IMG/VR virus record: IMGVR_UViG_3300021141_000001
Direction: 5' to 3' (one strand)
Origin: a virus
DNA length: 64,000 nt
Shown one piece after another: positions 4,914 to 53,357 of the stretch. Within the stretch, counting starts at the first letter, position 1; the number at the start of each line of letters is the position of its first letter. A model generated the notes under the pieces. That model was not told where the DNA came from, did not search any database, and was given only the letters and a program-made list of their open reading frames with translations. Both the position numbers and the translations under genes were made by a program.

Positions 4914-4939
4914 TTTTTATATTTGTAATATATAGATTA

Positions 4940-35012: not shown

Positions 35013-35972
35013 ATGATTAAAAGATATTTAGAGTTTATAAAAGAAAGTCAAATTAATGGATTCAATTCACTAGGTGAGTGGGTTGAATCTTTAATATCTG
35101 ATGATTATGTTAGAAACATAGTAGCTCGTTATACAAAAGATTCTGATGCTTCTATTGATTTATCAAATGCTATTAATATCTTAGATGATAATACTAAAGA
35201 TGAAATTAAATATCAAATTGATAATTATTTACAAAATGGTATTGAAGAAAAAGAACCTGAGTTCTTAGTTTCAACTGATTTAGAAGAATTAACTGAATCT
35301 GAGATTACAGTTGCTGGTAAAGGTATATTTATTTCTTTCTTAAAATCTTTAACCAGTTTAGGTCAAAAAGAAGTGGGTCCAAATTGGTCTAAATCTTCAG
35401 ATGACTTTTTATTATACTATTACTATCCTAATTTACAATCAGAACATGTAAAACAAGTATTTTCAAGATTCAAATCTTTAAGTAGATACTTAGACCATGT
35501 TGATTATCAAAAAAATGAAGTTGATTTATACTTTGGTATCAAATGTGATGGTAATTTTGAATATGGTTTACATTATGATGTACCAACACCAATTGGTCAA
35601 TTTAAGTTGAATCAATCTGTTATTAAATGGATTTGTCAAATTGAATCTAAGTCTGCTCATTCATTAAAGAAAGAATTAGTTAATTTAACTTTAGCAGATG
35701 TAATTACATTAGGTAAAATTAAATTAGATATGAAAGAATTCAATCCGGGATATCACGAATCAAAAGATGTTGTGAAAATTCAAGATAAGATTATTTCATT
35801 TGGATATAAAGGTTTAGGTAAATGGGACAACGGTAAATTTGATGAAGGTGAGTTTATGAATATTAAAAATAACTTCACTACTTGGGTAATGACTAAGAGA
35901 TGGGGTGGTAAAGTTTTAATAAGTGTTAAACCAACATCATATTATGTTTACATACATATAAAATTAAAGTAA
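35013..35972 (+). CDS. Hypothetical protein with capsid-targeting-like N-terminus
   Basis: MIKRYLEFIKES; TAATATATA at 35000-35008. Confidence 0.7.
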   Translation: MIKRYLEFIKESQINGFNSLGEWVESLISDDYVRNIVARYTKDSDASIDLSNAINILDDNTKDEIKYQIDNYLQNGIEEKEPEFLVSTDLEELTESEITVAGKGIFISFLKSLTSLGQKEVGPNWSKSSDDFLLYYYYPNLQSEHVKQVFSRFKSLSRYLDHVDYQKNEVDLYFGIKCDGNFEYGLHYDVPTPIGQFKLNQSVIKWICQIESKSAHSLKKELVNLTLADVITLGKIKLDMKEFNPGYHESKDVVKIQDKIISFGYKGLGKWDNGKFDEGEFMNIKNNFTTWVMTKRWGGKVLISVKPTSYYVYIHIKLK

Positions 35973-35974
35973 TC

Positions 35975-36718
35975 ATGAAAATTAAAAACTATAAACTATT
36001 TTTAGAGTCAAATAATTTTGACTTTGATTTTTTAGCAAACATTGGTAAAATGAAACAAGCTATTATTAAAATAGTTCAACTTCATGAGAAAAAGTGTTAT
36101 GGTGATATTAAACTATCATCTTATGAAAGATTTAAAGCTTCATTAAATGATTTAATTGATAGTGCTGTTAAAGGTGAATATACAATTACTGAAGATTACT
36201 TATCTGTAATTAATTTATTTGAAAAAGAAGTTTATGGAAAAGATTTACTTTCTTCTTATGAAGAATCTATTTTTAGTCATTTAGATGATTTGATATCTTG
36301 TTTTAATAGTTTATTAGATAATGAGGAAAAAGACGAAGAAGATATTATGAGATTAGGAAAAGATGCTGACCATATCTTAAATAAGATGGATGAGACTTGG
36401 ATTTATACTTCTGATGAATCTAATGTTAGTATTTCTGATATTGATATAAGTGATATTGATGATGCTATTGCTGGTTTAGACGATAGATTGTCAAAAGAAA
36501 CAGATGACATGTGGACTTCTGAAGAAGAATTTGAAAAGGATATTGAATCATATATTGGAAAGAAAATGGATGATTTTGATTACTCGGATAAACTACAAGC
36601 TTATCAATATATTGAGAACAAAGAATGGGTGAAAAATATACTTGAAGGTGGTTCAGAAAAAGATAAAGACTTTGTTACTAACTTTCTTTCTCAAATGAAA
36701 GATATGTTTGGCATATAA
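35975..36718 (+). CDS. Acidic hypothetical protein with capsid-targeting-like N-terminus
   Basis: MKIKNYKLFLES. Confidence 0.7.
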   Translation: MKIKNYKLFLESNNFDFDFLANIGKMKQAIIKIVQLHEKKCYGDIKLSSYERFKASLNDLIDSAVKGEYTITEDYLSVINLFEKEVYGKDLLSSYEESIFSHLDDLISCFNSLLDNEEKDEEDIMRLGKDADHILNKMDETWIYTSDESNVSISDIDISDIDDAIAGLDDRLSKETDDMWTSEEEFEKDIESYIGKKMDDFDYSDKLQAYQYIENKEWVKNILEGGSEKDKDFVTNFLSQMKDMFGI

Positions 36719-36733
36719 ATTAATATATACATT

Positions 36734-37045
36734 ATGAAATACTTAAAGAAATATAACGAAAATCAAGAACAACAAGATCCTGAGTTTGCTATTGCTAAAA
36801 TTAAGGGAAGATATCCTGAGGATATGGTTCAAGATATGTTAAATGATGAGATTAATCAGTGGAAGCCAGATGAAGAAGATCCAGAATTCTATTCAAGAAC
36901 TGGAAACGGAGAAGCAGAAGATGTTATCATCAATCAAATGATTGGTTGGTTTGATAAAAAGTATTATGCTTTATCTGATGAAAACTTTGAGAAAGTTAAA
37001 CAATTAATACTAAAAGAGTATGAGTTCTTAAACTTTAACTACTAA
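36734..37045 (+). CDS. Small protein with capsid-targeting-like N-terminus
   Basis: MKYLKKYNE; TAATATATA at 36721-36729. Confidence 0.65.
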   Translation: MKYLKKYNENQEQQDPEFAIAKIKGRYPEDMVQDMLNDEINQWKPDEEDPEFYSRTGNGEAEDVIINQMIGWFDKKYYALSDENFEKVKQLILKEYEFLNFNY

Positions 37046-37090
37046 ACAAAAAATGAAAACTTTTCTATAACAAGAAAAGTTTTTTGTTTT

Positions 37091-37423
37091 ATGAAAACAC
37101 CAAATTTATTTCCCGTAGCTATGAAAATTGCTGCTCAAACTATTGGACAAGATTTAGTCAGTGTTCAACCAATGGCTGGACCAGGTGGAATGACTAAAGA
37201 AGAAAGAGAAAGAATTGAAGCCGAGATTAAACAAAAGAATCGTGATGGTAAAATCGATTCATTAATTGAAGGATCAGAATATAAAGAAGAAAAATTAGAA
37301 GAACATCCTGATTATAAACCAGGTAGTGGTTGTCAATTATTTTATATGGATTATACTTACAATTCTCCAACTCACAAAAAAACAAGAAGAAGTAAAAAGA
37401 AAAAGAAAGATGGGAGTATTTAA
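37091..37423 (+). CDS. Small protein: major capsid protein (gp23 Gol-region) fragment interrupted by the tag
   Basis: LFPVAMKIAAQTIGQDLVSVQPMAGPGG ... NRDGKIDSLIEG ... QLFYMDYTY. Confidence 0.7.
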   Translation: MKTPNLFPVAMKIAAQTIGQDLVSVQPMAGPGGMTKEERERIEAEIKQKNRDGKIDSLIEGSEYKEEKLEEHPDYKPGSGCQLFYMDYTYNSPTHKKTRRSKKKKKDGSI

Positions 37424-37595
37424 GAGTCCAGGAGTTTTTGTTAAAGAAGTAGATATATCTATTGTTAGACCAACTTTTTCCAAAAGATATTCAAGAAGAA
37501 TAAAAATAGGTAAAATATTTGATATAGATGTTCCTAATATTATTATAACTTCTACTCCAAAAGGAGGACCCTCAAACTTTCCACAAATCTGGTGA
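37410..37595 (+). CDS. Small protein: tail sheath N-terminal fragment plus tag
   Basis: MGVFKSPGVFVKEVDIS ... SRRIKIGKIFD; likely start is the ATG at 37410. Confidence 0.65.
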   Translation: MGVFKSPGVFVKEVDISIVRPTFSKRYSRRIKIGKIFDIDVPNIIITSTPKGGPSNFPQIW

Positions 37596-37625
37596 TGAAA
37601 ACATGTTAGAGTAATATATACTCTA

Positions 37626-37961
37626 ATGATAAATGTTTATTTGATATGTGCCGAATTTGAAGGAAGAAGATTGTATAAGATTGGTTATACAAGAAGAGAT
37701 GTCTCTAAAAGAATTAAAGAGTTGAAGACTGGTAACGGTTCTGAAATGTATGTTATAGATTCTTTTAAGTCAAAATGGGGAACTAAAATTGAATCACAGT
37801 TACACAGAACATTTAAAAGTAAAAAGATAAATGGTGAGTGGTTTGATTTAACTGATGAAGAAGTAAAATCATTTATGGAAAAATGTAAATCTTCACATGA
37901 TGTGATGGAACTAATTACCACCAACAATACTTACTACTTAGAAACTGGTAAACTATATTAA
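37626..37961 (+). CDS. GIY-YIG family nuclease (T5orf172/MUG113-like)
   Basis: VYLI..YKIGYT..RIKELKTGN, IESQLH, NGEWFDL. Confidence 0.85.
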   Translation: MINVYLICAEFEGRRLYKIGYTRRDVSKRIKELKTGNGSEMYVIDSFKSKWGTKIESQLHRTFKSKKINGEWFDLTDEEVKSFMEKCKSSHDVMELITTNNTYYLETGKLY

Positions 37962-38673: not shown

Positions 38674-40422
38674 ATGCTTATTAGTGAATTAGGAATTAGA
38701 GGATTCAAAAGTTATGGTAATAACGAACAAGTCTTAAAATTAAATACGGAAAAAGGAGAATTGATTCTTCTTGTTGGAAATAACGGAGCAGGTAAATCAT
38801 CTTTGTTAGATTCCTTCGATTACACACTTTATGGTAAAGTTAGAGGTCGTAAAAAGAAATGGGCCACTTTATCCACACTCCCAAACAGAATTAACGGTGA
38901 ACTACTTAATAGAATTAAATTTAATTCTTTAGGTACTGACGTTGAAATAAAACGAGGTATATCACCTGGTGTGTTAGAACTTACAGAAAACGGTGTTGTC
39001 AATGAAAGAGCCGGTAAAGGTAATGTTGATGAAAAGATTGAAAAGTATATCGGTATGGATATTGAAACTTTCAAATCATTTATCTCAATGTCTATTAATG
39101 ATTTCAAAAACTTTATCTCTTTATCAAATGAAGAAAAACAACTTCTTTTAGATAAGTTGTTCAACTTAGAAGTTATCAATATCTTAAATGGTATCTTAAA
39201 AGATATCGCTAAGAATAATAAAGTCAGAGCCGCTTCTTTTGATGGTGAAATTAGAACTTTAGATGACTCAATTTCATCTATTCAAAAGTCTATTGATAAA
39301 GCTATTGAAAGGCAAAAAGAAGAAGCTAGACTAGCTTTAGAAAGAGAGAAAGAAGATATTCAAGCCGAGATTGATAGAATCACAGGTGAGATGAATTCTA
39401 GAAAAGATGATTATAAATCTTTGAAAGAAAAGATGGATAAAATCAAAGAAAAGGATTCAGAATTATCTGATGAGATGGACAAAGAAAAAAGACAACTTAT
39501 CAATTGTCAAAATGATATTAAGAATGTTCAAAGAGAATTAGACTTATATGATTCTGGTAAATGTCCTACTTGTAAAACAGATTTTGATTCGGTTCACTTT
39601 GCTAATTTAAGAACGGCTTTAGAAGAAAAGAAATTAGGTTTTGAAAATATCAAATCTGAAATTGAAGCTAATGTTACTAAGATAAGAGAAAGACAAGTTA
39701 AGTTAAAAGGTTTATCTGAAACAACTACAACAACTTTTAATGATTTAAGTTATCTATTGAAAAACTATAAATCAGAGATTGATAAATTAGTTCAAAAGAA
39801 AGCTTCTCAAACTGTTCCGGTTAATACTACTCCTTCTATTAATATTCAAGAGTTTCAAAATACAATTGAAGAACTTGAAGAAAAGAAAGTAGTTAGTTCT
39901 GATAACATCACAGTTTGTAAAGAGAAAGACCTTTATTATAAAGAGTTGAATCGTATCTTTGGTGAAGATGGTGTTAAGAAGTCTATAATCTCTGGCATTA
40001 TTAAACCAATCAATCACTTTATTGCTGAGAATATTAAAAAGATGAGTTTGCCATTTGAAGTAAGATTAGATGAAACTTTTACAGCTGAGATTAAACAATT
40101 AGGTTCTCAAATTGAACACGATTCTTTATCAACTGGTGAAACTAAAAAAGTTAATATTAGTATCTTAATTGCTTACTTGAAGTTAATTAGAACTAAGCGT
40201 CATATCAATATACTCTTCTTGGATGAGGTCTTCTCTTCTATTGATATCGAAGGTATAGATTCTATTTTGGCTCTCTTAAAATCGTTCGCAAACGATTATA
40301 ACATCAATATCTTTGTTGTCCATCATGCTATTTTGAACCAAGAGATGTTTGATAGAATACTGAAGATTAATAAAGAAGTGTTTTCTTCGATAGAAGAGGT
40401 TGATCTGAGTTATGGAAGTTGA
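38674..40422 (+). CDS. SbcC/Rad50/T4 gp46-like recombination ATPase
   Basis: GFKSYGN, GNNGAGKS, CPTC zinc hook in a coiled coil, LSTGE signature, LFLDEVF, VVHH. Confidence 0.95.
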   Translation: MLISELGIRGFKSYGNNEQVLKLNTEKGELILLVGNNGAGKSSLLDSFDYTLYGKVRGRKKKWATLSTLPNRINGELLNRIKFNSLGTDVEIKRGISPGVLELTENGVVNERAGKGNVDEKIEKYIGMDIETFKSFISMSINDFKNFISLSNEEKQLLLDKLFNLEVINILNGILKDIAKNNKVRAASFDGEIRTLDDSISSIQKSIDKAIERQKEEARLALEREKEDIQAEIDRITGEMNSRKDDYKSLKEKMDKIKEKDSELSDEMDKEKRQLINCQNDIKNVQRELDLYDSGKCPTCKTDFDSVHFANLRTALEEKKLGFENIKSEIEANVTKIRERQVKLKGLSETTTTTFNDLSYLLKNYKSEIDKLVQKKASQTVPVNTTPSINIQEFQNTIEELEEKKVVSSDNITVCKEKDLYYKELNRIFGEDGVKKSIISGIIKPINHFIAENIKKMSLPFEVRLDETFTAEIKQLGSQIEHDSLSTGETKKVNISILIAYLKLIRTKRHINILFLDEVFSSIDIEGIDSILALLKSFANDYNINIFVVHHAILNQEMFDRILKINKEVFSSIEEVDLSYGS

Positions 40423-40702
40423 TAATTTGTTAGAATTATATCTTAACGCTAAGAAAGATAAGAAAGAAGCTATTAGTCTTCAAAAATATGAGAAAGCGGC
40501 TATGGCTAGAGATACAGAACGCAAACATTCAGTTGATTTGTATGAGTTATTGAGTGGTGATAAAGTTGAAGCTTTTGATTATAATAAATTTGATAAACTT
40601 ATTGATGATTACTGTATGAGTAAGTATGAAGTAAGTATTTATGATACACACTCATTAAAACAAATTATTAGACAGAAAAGACTAAAAGATTTAGGAATAT
40701 AA
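40412..40702 (+). CDS. Small protein: UVR (UvrB/C, ClpC M-domain) coil plus C-terminal tag
   Basis: KKEAISLQKYEKAAMARDTER; ends IIRQKRLKDLGI. Confidence 0.7.
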   Translation: MEVDNLLELYLNAKKDKKEAISLQKYEKAAMARDTERKHSVDLYELLSGDKVEAFDYNKFDKLIDDYCMSKYEVSIYDTHSLKQIIRQKRLKDLGI

Positions 40703-40745: not shown

Positions 40746-42284
40746 TTAACAATCGTAACAATCTACTTGTCCTCGACCATAACAATTACCACATTCTACT
40801 GTTTCATCTCCATCACATTCACGACATGTTCTTTTACCATCTCCATCACAATCTGAACAATTCACTTTACCAGATCCATCACAATCTGAACATTCTTCCT
40901 CTTCGCCATCAGAGCCTTCAACATTACCAGATCCATCACAATTTGAACAATCTTCTTTACCATCACCATCACAACTATTACACTCAATAGTTCCTTCACC
41001 ATCACAATTACCACAAGAAACTGTACCTTCACCGTCACAGTCATAACATTCAGTTCTACCAGAACCATTACAAGTATCACAAGGTCTAACATAGTCACCA
41101 CCTGTATCTTCTAAGAAGTAACAACCACCAGTATCCTCATTTGAAATAGTTTTTGTTCTTGAGTTAAAATATTTAAGTGTATCTAAATAAGGAAAATTAT
41201 CCATACTAGCATCAGTTAAATTAACAGTTAAATCTAAATTAACTCTACTTCCATCTGGAGCTATAGCTTGACCACTATCTGAACTATTATTATGTTCTTT
41301 ATAGTACCAACCATTTTCTTTAGCATAATCTCTGAATAGTTCAACATCAGAAGGATTTACTGTATAGATTCTATCTAAATATTCTTTACCATCTTTTAAT
41401 TTCCAAAGTAATGCTCTACCGATAATTTTTTCAGTATCATCCATTGATTTGTAAATAACTAAACCAACTTCTGGATTAGCAGTATAAACTTCTAACCAAC
41501 TATCTGGAGCACCAGCCATACAAGACGAACCTAAAGTACCATTTCTTTCAAAGTAGTTTTCATTATGATACCAATGAGCAATATCGGAACCTCTAGCAAC
41601 TTCAATATAAGAGAATTTATCATTCATCTTATCAATAGTAGCTTTATATAAATTCACAAATTGTTCAAAATCTTTATCAGTAAATTCAGCACCAGCCGCT
41701 TTTAAAAGCGCTCTCATTGCTCTACCTACTTTAATCTCTTGTCTACTTGATGACCAAACTTTTTTAAGTTTTTCATCAACAGATCTTAATTTCTCAACAT
41801 TATAAACGCCTTGACCAGCATCATTTCCAGATAAATCTTTAAATTTAACCCAAGCATAAGATTTACCACTTGTTTCAGATGTTACTTTAGCAACAACTTC
41901 ACCTAAATCTCTTGAATTAGGTTTATAAGGTTCAGAACCTTCTTCAAATGTATAACCTAGTTTTTCAAATAAGCCATTATTAGACTCTTTGTGTTTTAAC
42001 CAACCTCCACCAGAACCTGTAAATCTAACCACTTCTTTAGTATCACCTAAAATCTCTTGTGCTTTTCTATCAGGAGTAAAAGAAATTGTATCATTTTTAG
42101 AAAATTCTATATCAAGATAATTAGCTTGAACAGTTAAGTCATTATTTTCAACACCTAAAATGGCTTTAGCCATTGGATGGTCAATTTTAGCCATTGCCTT
42201 TCTGAAGTTATCAGAGAAAACGACATTTGATTCTAGTATAAACTCTAGATTTTCTTTTATAAAGTCTGAATATTTTTTAATCAT
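40746..42284 (-). CDS. SCM/RALLW/DRIY-motif protein with capsid-targeting-like N-terminus and tandem CxxCxGxG zinc fingers
   Basis: MIKKYSDFIKE; GTLGSSCM, GRALLW, LDRIY, FPYLDT; about 9 DnaJ-type zinc-finger repeats. Confidence 0.75.
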   Translation of the reverse strand: MIKKYSDFIKENLEFILESNVVFSDNFRKAMAKIDHPMAKAILGVENNDLTVQANYLDIEFSKNDTISFTPDRKAQEILGDTKEVVRFTGSGGGWLKHKESNNGLFEKLGYTFEEGSEPYKPNSRDLGEVVAKVTSETSGKSYAWVKFKDLSGNDAGQGVYNVEKLRSVDEKLKKVWSSSRQEIKVGRAMRALLKAAGAEFTDKDFEQFVNLYKATIDKMNDKFSYIEVARGSDIAHWYHNENYFERNGTLGSSCMAGAPDSWLEVYTANPEVGLVIYKSMDDTEKIIGRALLWKLKDGKEYLDRIYTVNPSDVELFRDYAKENGWYYKEHNNSSDSGQAIAPDGSRVNLDLTVNLTDASMDNFPYLDTLKYFNSRTKTISNEDTGGCYFLEDTGGDYVRPCDTCNGSGRTECYDCDGEGTVSCGNCDGEGTIECNSCDGDGKEDCSNCDGSGNVEGSDGEEEECSDCDGSGKVNCSDCDGDGKRTCRECDGDETVECGNCYGRGQVDCYDC

Positions 42285-42357
42285 TTTCAACTATGTTATG
42301 TTTTATAGATATAAGTATATATTAAATATATAATGTACAAAAATTAATTTATTACAT

Positions 42358-52455: not shown

Positions 52456-53019
52456 ATGTCACAAATATCAATTGTTGATTGGATTACGGCTTTATTAATA
52501 GTCGTGCCTTTATTTGCTTTACTTATATCAATTCCAAGTTTTATCTCTATGTATAAACTTGGATTCAAAGCTTATGTAGAACAATTGATACTTTTGAAAA
52601 CAATGTTGAAAAAGATATCATCTGGATATAAAATTACTCAAAATCAAGTTTATAATTACAGCGGTGTTAGTTATAATGGACCAAAATCAGTAACACAAGT
52701 TGAAACTAATCATTTCTTTCCAATAGTTATTAATAAAGATAATCTCTTAGTTCTTAATAAGAAAGAAGGTCCATTTAATACTTTACATATTCAGTATTGT
52801 AAACATGAAAATGATAACTGGGATAATAATATGGTTGAGATAAAAACCAGCAATTGTTTATTTACTCAAATTCTAAATGACAGATTTCAAAAAAAAGTTG
52901 ATAATCTTATGAAAGAGTCTGTTCAACTTGATGGAGTTGAAAATCTAAATGAACTATTAAATAGTGAAATAACTTCTATTAAAAGAGAAGATAAACTTAA
53001 TGCTTTATTAAATGATTAA
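52456..53019 (+). CDS. Membrane-anchored protein with C-terminal tag
   Basis: N-terminal TM helix; ends KREDKLNALLND. Confidence 0.65.
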   Translation: MSQISIVDWITALLIVVPLFALLISIPSFISMYKLGFKAYVEQLILLKTMLKKISSGYKITQNQVYNYSGVSYNGPKSVTQVETNHFFPIVINKDNLLVLNKKEGPFNTLHIQYCKHENDNWDNNMVEIKTSNCLFTQILNDRFQKKVDNLMKESVQLDGVENLNELLNSEITSIKREDKLNALLND

Positions 53020-53176
53020 AAGAGACATTGTAATAGTTGACCATATCAGTATGATAAGTGCTACTACGGTAGACCCATCCATATTGGAAAAACTTAATAT
53101 TCGTGTTAAGAATATTCGTAAGTATAGAGGTCGTATTGAAAAACGAAAAGAAAAAATAAAAAGAATTTATGAATAA
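53012..53176 (+). CDS. Small protein (54 aa): DnaB/T7 gp4 helicase Walker-B-like fragment plus tag
   Basis: Manual ORF MIKRDIVIVDHISMIS...KRKEKIKRIYE, overlapping both neighbours by 8 nt. Confidence 0.55.
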   Translation: MIKRDIVIVDHISMISATTVDPSILEKLNIRVKNIRKYRGRIEKRKEKIKRIYE

Positions 53177-53357
53177 AGAAACTCTTGATATATTTGGTCA
53201 ATATCTAAATGGTAATAAACAAATTATGATGTTGAAGGCTAGGCAAACTGGTAAGTCAAGTGCCACCGCTTCTTTAATGGCTTGGAAACATCTTCATAGT
53301 AAATATGAAAGAGCAAGAACGAGAAAAGAAACCATAAAACGGCTTTTTAATATATAA
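53169..53357 (+). CDS. Small protein: terminase large subunit Walker A fragment plus tag
   Basis: IMMLKARQTGKSSATA; ends TRKETIKRLFNI. Confidence 0.7.
   Translation: MNKETLDIFGQYLNGNKQIMMLKARQTGKSSATASLMAWKHLHSKYERARTRKETIKRLFNI

Follow-up and report, generated by a model that had tools for sequence, protein, structure and literature searches.

A conserved mini-gene of freshwater giant phages with a sheath-arm-like start and a recurrent helix label

The N-terminal arm of the sheath protein is the strand that holds the sheath together in all contractile tails, tailocins and type VI systems. The locus described here raises the question of why a phage would carry a resemblance of that arm at the start of an open reading frame of only 61 codons, joined to a short basic helix, and of what such a product could do. 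A gene for a lone arm on a common label would be a natural tool with which to cap or probe sheath assembly. The sequence analysed, hereafter the window, is a 64,000-nt stretch of A+T-rich phage DNA. The named sequences nearest to it, with 69-75% DNA identity, belong to two uncultured giant phages, LR745206 (635 kb) and LR756502 (642 kb), which have both been described as freshwater or subsurface megaphages (PMC9723777). Comparisons were made with these two genomes, with IMG/VR contigs (385 and 476 kb) and with 30 loci from metagenomes.

The 61-codon gene and its neighbourhood

The features of the locus, in window coordinates and with the basis of each assignment in brackets, are as follows.

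37056..37090, + strand: A+T-rich hairpin and U-tract abutting the start of the capsid-fragment gene (alignment, folding)
37091..37423, + strand: mini-gene for a capsid N-terminus fragment, 110 aa (Pfam Gp23, phmmer)
37410..37595, + strand: gene for the 61-aa mini-protein (ORF call, homologue clusters, conserved frame)
37410..37469, + strand: module 1, residues 1-20, copy of the tail-sheath N-terminal arm (reciprocal best matches, hhalign)
37482..37520, + strand: module 2, residues 25-37, basic amphipathic helix (sole confident AF2 element)
37494-37520, + strand: label R29-x-x-K32-I33-x-x-I36-F37 (family conservation)
37533..37592, + strand: module 3, residues 42-61, strand and turn (TerL matches, sheath-colinear position)
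37613..37620, + strand: AATATATA motif, 5 nt before the MUG113 gene (recurrent upstream position)
37626..37961, + strand: MUG113/T5orf172 (GIY-YIG-like) gene (Pfam MUG113, E 3e-21)

The mini-gene starts with ATG at 37410 and stops with TGA at 37593-37595, and its 61-aa product begins M-G-V-F-K-S-P-G-V-F-V-K-E-V-D-I-S. A word-indexed search gave at least 141 homologue clusters at 90% identity, with members of about 56-61 aa that are 67-94% identical and conserved over their full length. When 1.8 billion representatives were searched exhaustively with a profile, 48 sequences were recovered at the level of 50%-identity representatives, all of 32-104 aa but for one false match of 220 aa; this sequence, P0284, was rejected as a relative because it is a repeat translation. 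As all true relatives from this search are short, the mini-protein stands alone. The start, stop and frame are kept in 27 distinct DNA versions, among which differences in length are whole codons. Over these 27 DNAs the pooled omega was 0.51 by the Nei-Gojobori method; by segment it was lowest in the C-terminal module (0.44), intermediate in the label (0.48) and highest in the arm (0.57). Selection on the mini-gene is purifying and moderate (omega about 0.5). The reading frame at 37410-37595 is a genuine gene and not a chance ORF, and its conservation within a lineage of freshwater giant phages, as about 60 codons arranged in three modules, is well supported. A search of the ESM Atlas gave nothing above chance, and no description of sheath-arm mini-genes or of an R-x-x-K-I-x-x-I-F label was found in the literature.

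The gene immediately upstream encodes a fragment of a capsid protein. Its product matches positions 5-44 of Pfam Gp23 at E 3e-4, which falls below the cut-off, and phmmer matched it to residues 92-119 of a 562-aa protein, the presumed MCP, in a relative (E 1.4e-6); the matched region is presumably the equivalent of the T4 Gol peptide. The same label pattern is found in this protein within an insert. The capsid-fragment gene encodes 110 aa in the window and 139-165 aa in relatives. The window copy does not have the 30-55 N-terminal residues, with a ...K-W-x-P... start, that are seen in relatives, and starts directly after the hairpin. The hairpin is invariant in five aligned relatives and has a fold energy of -11.9 kcal/mol (z -3.5). 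The original prediction had noted an overlap of the two mini-genes, and the start of the 61-codon gene does overlap the end of the capsid-fragment gene, by 14 nt. An overlap of 1-26 nt is present in 24 of 26 informative loci, 18 of which share the 14-nt form, and the two genes of LR756502 meet in a simple ATGA overlap. The overlapping start and end suggest that the two proteins may be translated jointly.

The gene order of capsid fragment, mini-gene and MUG113/T5orf172 gene is fixed over 32 loci, with the MUG113 gene next downstream in 29 of them and the other three at contig edges. Further downstream lie small ORFs and a gp46-like gene, and no sheath body; a tblastn search of the window with the sheath likewise detected no sheath gene. 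The mini-gene adjoins recombination genes and is distant from tail genes, lying about 130 kb from the sheath gene in a relative. Rfam gave no match at the locus. In one relative (L004, 7196-11106) the gp46/SbcC-like gene is broken right after its Walker A G-A-G-K-S by about 1.9 kb containing a 513-aa ORF and resumes past ...S-H-N; the arrangement resembles an intein that harbours a gene. Several proteins of this neighbourhood begin with leaders like M-x-K-x-Y-x-x-F-x-x-E, for example M-I-K-R-Y-L-E-F-I-K-E (35013-35972, 35975-36718, 36734-37045 and, on the complementary strand, 40746-42290). We take these leaders to resemble the T4 capsid-targeting sequence, and by that analogy the proteins that carry them may be packaged.

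The AATATATA motif follows the mini-gene stop in 31 of 32 loci. There are 30 sites for it in the window, e.g. at 4927, 25573, 35001, 36722, 37613, 42316(-), 47062(-) and 51424(-), and it is located 4-5 or 20-25 nt ahead of many starts, including those of large structural-type genes. It may be a phage promoter element, in which case transcripts from the 4-5 nt class would have almost no leader. The motif precedes the upstream 103-aa gene and the downstream MUG113 gene, but not the pair of mini-genes, and since it is absent directly before the pair, the two are probably read through from upstream.

Sheath-like arm, helix label and terminase-like strand

The sheath proteins of the relatives are 1283-1314 aa in length (PHROG tail sheath, E 3e-96), and their N-termini read ...Y-K-R-P-G-I-F-I-E-E-F-D-x-S. 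For targeted HMM tests the complete 385-kb relative was translated in six frames, giving 6080 frames. An HMM of clade sheath residues 1-27 found the mini-ORF of this genome as its top non-self match (E 7.7e-4), and the N-terminal 20 residues of the mini-protein and the clade sheath arm were reciprocal best hits. In the other direction, the family HMM matched the N-terminus of the 1284-1330-aa sheath in four of four related genomes, with E-values from 8e-4 to 7e-3, and hhalign of the diverse family against the clade sheath gave a probability of 92.6% and an E-value of 4.6e-7, with sheath residues 4-65 aligned. The reciprocal matches and the hhalign result bear out the original prediction that the N-terminus is a sheath N-terminal arm. 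An HMM comparison with sheaths had been proposed as its check, and the outcome was divided: clade-specific profiles of the sheath arm match, whereas the general resources are silent, with no match to the 61-aa protein in Pfam or PHROGs and no full-length sheath at E 1e-3 in the HMM search of 1.8 billion representatives. Two sheath N-termini, 9ezm (E 0.29) and 7adz (E 1.7), were among the top five PDB matches over residues 1-15, both non-significant; by eye, 9 of 15 positions are identical between the mini-arm and 9ezm. A tblastn search against phages likewise returned only non-significant matches to sheath N-termini, those of Vibrio phages being 54% identical over 24 aa.

The positions conserved in the mini-family (S6, P7, G8, V9, E13 and D15) are the conserved positions of the clade sheath arm, and P7, G8 and E13 are kept in at least 90% of sequences even among 50%-identity representatives. 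The arm lies 2-8 residues from Met1 across the family, as it does in genuine sheaths. Many divergent members run on after the label with the sheath stretch K-G-P-x-N-x-P...D-F-x-x-I-F-G, and in sister lineages the sheath sequence goes on to about residue 65. These bridging members, together with the targeted matches, indicate that the family is a partial 5' copy of the sheath gene, and descent of the mini-gene from the first 50-65 codons of the phage's tail-sheath gene is well supported by the sequence comparisons. In some members, L067 and P0271, the arm is almost the same as that of the clade's sheath, suggesting that the family has been re-sampled from the sheath gene repeatedly. Because the codons differ at synonymous sites, recent copying of sheath or TerL DNA was rejected. 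The clade sheath arm is nearly invariant, whereas the mini-arm varies and has its own, differing consensus; in the syntenic orthologue of LR745206 the P-G-V core of the arm is lost and the label is kept. A second, degenerate arm-plus-label ORF is present elsewhere in LR745206; the sites of the orthologue and of this second ORF are L001 3795-4049 and L019 (LR745206 482060-482170). In the 385-kb relative the search turned up no mini-gene with a copy of the sheath's C-terminal arm.

In the AF2 model of the isolated mini-protein, helix 25-37 is the only confident element, with a pLDDT of about 79-86 and an overall mean of 66, and both strand segments are left unstructured. R29, K32, I33 and F37 are invariant and I36 is found in at least 90% of sequences. 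The label accounts for half of the eight positions that do not vary within the close family; R29 is the sole invariant position in the broader alignment. With the search pattern R-x-x-[KRT]-[ILM]-x-x-[IL]-[FLIYG], the label was observed 13 times in the window's 79 crude genes, where 0.95 would be expected. Nine of these occurrences are no more than 8 residues away from a C-terminus (expected, 0.05), and five played no part in deriving the pattern. The corresponding figures for the 385-kb relative were 54 observed and 6.7 expected, and 38 and 0.35 for C-terminal positions. The original prediction had treated the R-R-I-K-I-G-K-I-F segment as a tag, and the excess of the pattern in both genomes upholds this. 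Roughly 8% of the small proteins of the lineage are terminated by the label. It is internal in the 61-aa protein and forms the C-terminus of the shortest family members (36-47 aa), which indicates that arm plus label is the minimal design. A likeness of the label and its flanks (37482-37550) to the conserved beta-alpha-beta unit of ribosomal protein uL23, seen in a PDB profile search at E 0.12, was discounted, since the label's invariant R and K have no counterpart there, and is probably amphipathic-helix likeness only.

Labelled mini-proteins in the window copy a capsid region, the Walker A region of TerL, the sheath arm and a motif III-like strand. The second of these is a 62-aa labelled ORF at 53169-53357 that resembles the Walker A region of the cognate TerL (PHROG terminase, E 0.004); its neighbour at 53012-53176 has a Walker B-like strand, and both end in the label. 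A 96-aa gene at 40412-40702, after the gp46-like gene, also ends in the label (...R-Q-K-R-L-K-D-L-G-I) and keeps its position in three of the four relatives compared (L001 and L005, less clearly L002). Judged by their sequences, these labelled proteins with core-motif bodies point to an undescribed class.

The original prediction had the arm followed only by the tag, and in this respect it was incomplete, for residues 42-61 form a third conserved module after the label, nearly invariant and conserved to the same degree as the remainder of the protein. By position, module 3 is colinear with the first sheath strand and K-G-P loop (sheath residues about 33-50), and an HMM of sheath residues 28-70 did not detect the mini-ORF in the 385-kb relative. 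By spelling it resembles the large terminase: residues 44-52 read I-I-I-T-S-T-P-K-G, as compared with I-I-I-T-S-T-P-N-G in the cognate TerL and I-I-I-T-T-T-P-N-G in T4 gp17. The top non-self match of module 3 in the 385-kb relative was TerL (E 0.005), the reverse search agreed (E 0.0078), and [IV]-I-[IV]-T-[ST]-T-P-x-G has just two occurrences in the six-frame translation of that genome, one belonging to TerL and the other to the mini-ORF. Some family members agree with TerL at as many as 10 of 12 positions. TerL itself was aligned to T4 gp17 at E 3e-47, with its motif III stretch facing T-T-T, a motif known in terminases as the ATPase coupling motif or C-motif. The codons of module 3 and TerL differ at most synonymous sites, which argues that module 3 is not a recent TerL DNA copy. 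We read module 3 as sheath-derived by position and terminase-like in spelling, the latter by either selected mimicry or chance.

Possible roles of a labelled arm

In solved tails the N-arm strand of the sheath joins an inter-subunit 'handshake' sheet, in which the sheath N-terminus pairs with the C-terminus of a neighbour and is added to a C-terminal domain in the ring beneath (PMC10457771). For an unstructured donor strand on a helical handle, strand addition to the sheath-arm acceptor would be the simplest mechanism, and our tentative reading, to which we give somewhat less than an even chance, is that the mini-protein is a labelled strand mimic that docks on this acceptor as a cap or chain terminator. 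It would be unfolded on its own, with the helix as a handle for a common reader. Strands that need a partner are expected to be unstructured alone, and AF2 agrees for both strand segments. The free arm would add as a beta-strand onto the site that normally takes the sheath N-arm, which could be either the handshake platform of a sheath C-terminal domain or the sheath initiator of the baseplate, and once docked would cap or chain-terminate growth of the sheath, either the phage's own or that of a co-infecting rival. A role as a cap is favoured by the reality of the gene, the homology of the arm, the conserved positions that it shares with the sheath arm, its location near Met1, the members whose arms are almost those of the clade's sheath and the short members that consist of arm plus label only. 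Counted against it are the variable mini-arm with its own consensus and the loss of the P-G core in the LR745206 copy, as well as the missing C-arm mini-gene, though the handshake also needs the C-arm. The sister labelled proteins copy ATPase core strands and not inter-subunit arms, and the location beside recombination genes, away from tail genes, and the omega of about 0.5 also weigh against a cap.

The variable arm, the lost core, the lack of a C-arm mimic and the ATPase-copying sisters are better fitted by a bait or decoy, which overall we consider possible but doubtful. Here the arm would be a linear epitope copy that binds a host sensor or rival factor, and the label would pass the captive to a phage reader, by which the captured partner would be sequestered or destroyed. 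Such a role would explain the whole class at once, including the labelled Gol-like capsid, terminase Walker A and motif III-like proteins. By eye, the mini-arm is as close or closer to the sheath N-termini of unrelated phages than to its own sheath, and its evolution is more rapid than that of the sheath arm, the pattern of an arms race. STAND sensors of hosts are known to detect core phage proteins, including the MCP with EF-Tu, and TerL (PMC13581612), but a tail-sheath sensor has merely been suggested (PMC13581612), with none known, and the known Avs sensors read folded cores and not short linear motifs (PMC13581612). Furthermore, binding of the bait might just as well set the sensor off, and the reader of the label is only postulated. 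A speculative extension, held with the same doubt, is that megaphages possess a modular 'bait-and-label' system in which dozens of mini-proteins each present a linear copy of a core phage protein's best-conserved motif (the sheath arm, the Gol-like capsid region, Walker A and the coupling motif of the terminase, Walker B of a helicase) on one helix label for a single reader. Such a system might neutralise host pattern-recognition receptors, or chain-terminate rival phages or contractile weapons. Labelled motif copies make up several percent of the genes of these very abundant freshwater giant phages; the label reader, once found, would give a role to many 'hypothetical' small genes together and could expose a new counter-defence or phage-competition strategy.

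It is rather unlikely that the arm is an unused relic. On this reading the 5' part of the sheath gene was duplicated and taken up to form the body of a small labelled protein, in which only the label, and perhaps the strand following it, would be functional. The share of the invariant positions held by the label, with R29 alone invariant in the broader alignment, is as expected of such filler, as are the LR745206 orthologue that has retained the label without the arm core and the omega of about 0.5. Against this, P7, G8 and E13 remain at 90% or more at the 50%-identity level, the conserved arm positions match those of sheaths, and some members have had their arms renewed from cognate-type sheath arms. 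A split gene, interrupted by an intron or a MUG113 homing-endonuclease insertion, or a frameshift fusion with the capsid fragment is very improbable: despite the GIY-YIG-like gene directly after the mini-gene and A-rich runs within the 14-nt overlap, a split gene or intron was rejected since both a second exon downstream, where only small ORFs and the gp46-like gene lie, and an intron RNA or other Rfam match are absent and a full-length sheath (1283-1314 aa) is intact elsewhere in relatives, and a fusion was judged unlikely from the plain ATGA junction of LR756502 and the conserved stop position.

Comparison with known systems

As in contractile sheaths of the T4 gp18 type (PHROG 23, 34521; PF04984), the labelled strand mimic that we tentatively propose has [FY]-K-x-P-G-[VI]-[FY]-x-x-E-x-D-x-S at an equal distance from Met1. 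It differs from them in being a separate gene of 61 aa, in which the arm is followed by an inserted label helix and the first strand is re-spelled, and Pfam and PHROGs place no sheath body in it (Phage_sheath_1, the C-terminal handshake domain, more than about 350 aa). Non-sheath proteins are already known in the same strand-addition interface, namely the sheath initiators (T4 gp25, TssE, XM1 gp15) and the tail caps (PMC10457771). Whereas these are folded virion proteins that offer an acceptor or cap the tube, the mini-protein would be an unstructured copy of the donor strand with a label; no gp25/TssE- or terminator-like family was matched in Pfam or PHROGs, and the AF2 fold is one helix only. 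With terminase motif III (the C-motif, T285-T287 of T4 gp17) the mini-protein shares its spelling but sits in a sheath-colinear context, and of the large terminase ATPase it has the motif III-like strand only, Walker A, Walker B and the ATPase fold being absent.

A short piece of a core protein serves as a signal when the Gol region of T4 gp23 acts with Lit and EF-Tu, and when Avs7 senses the MCP with EF-Tu (PMC13581612). In those cases the peptide lies within the full protein and triggers host defence, whereas the mini-genes are separate, labelled phage genes; the neighbouring capsid-fragment mini-gene copies the Gol region. The use of one short peptide by many unrelated small phage proteins also recalls the capsid-targeting sequence of T4. 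That sequence is an N-terminal address label on internal proteins and is cleaved by the prohead protease, whereas the label described here is a C-terminal or internal helix of a different sequence.
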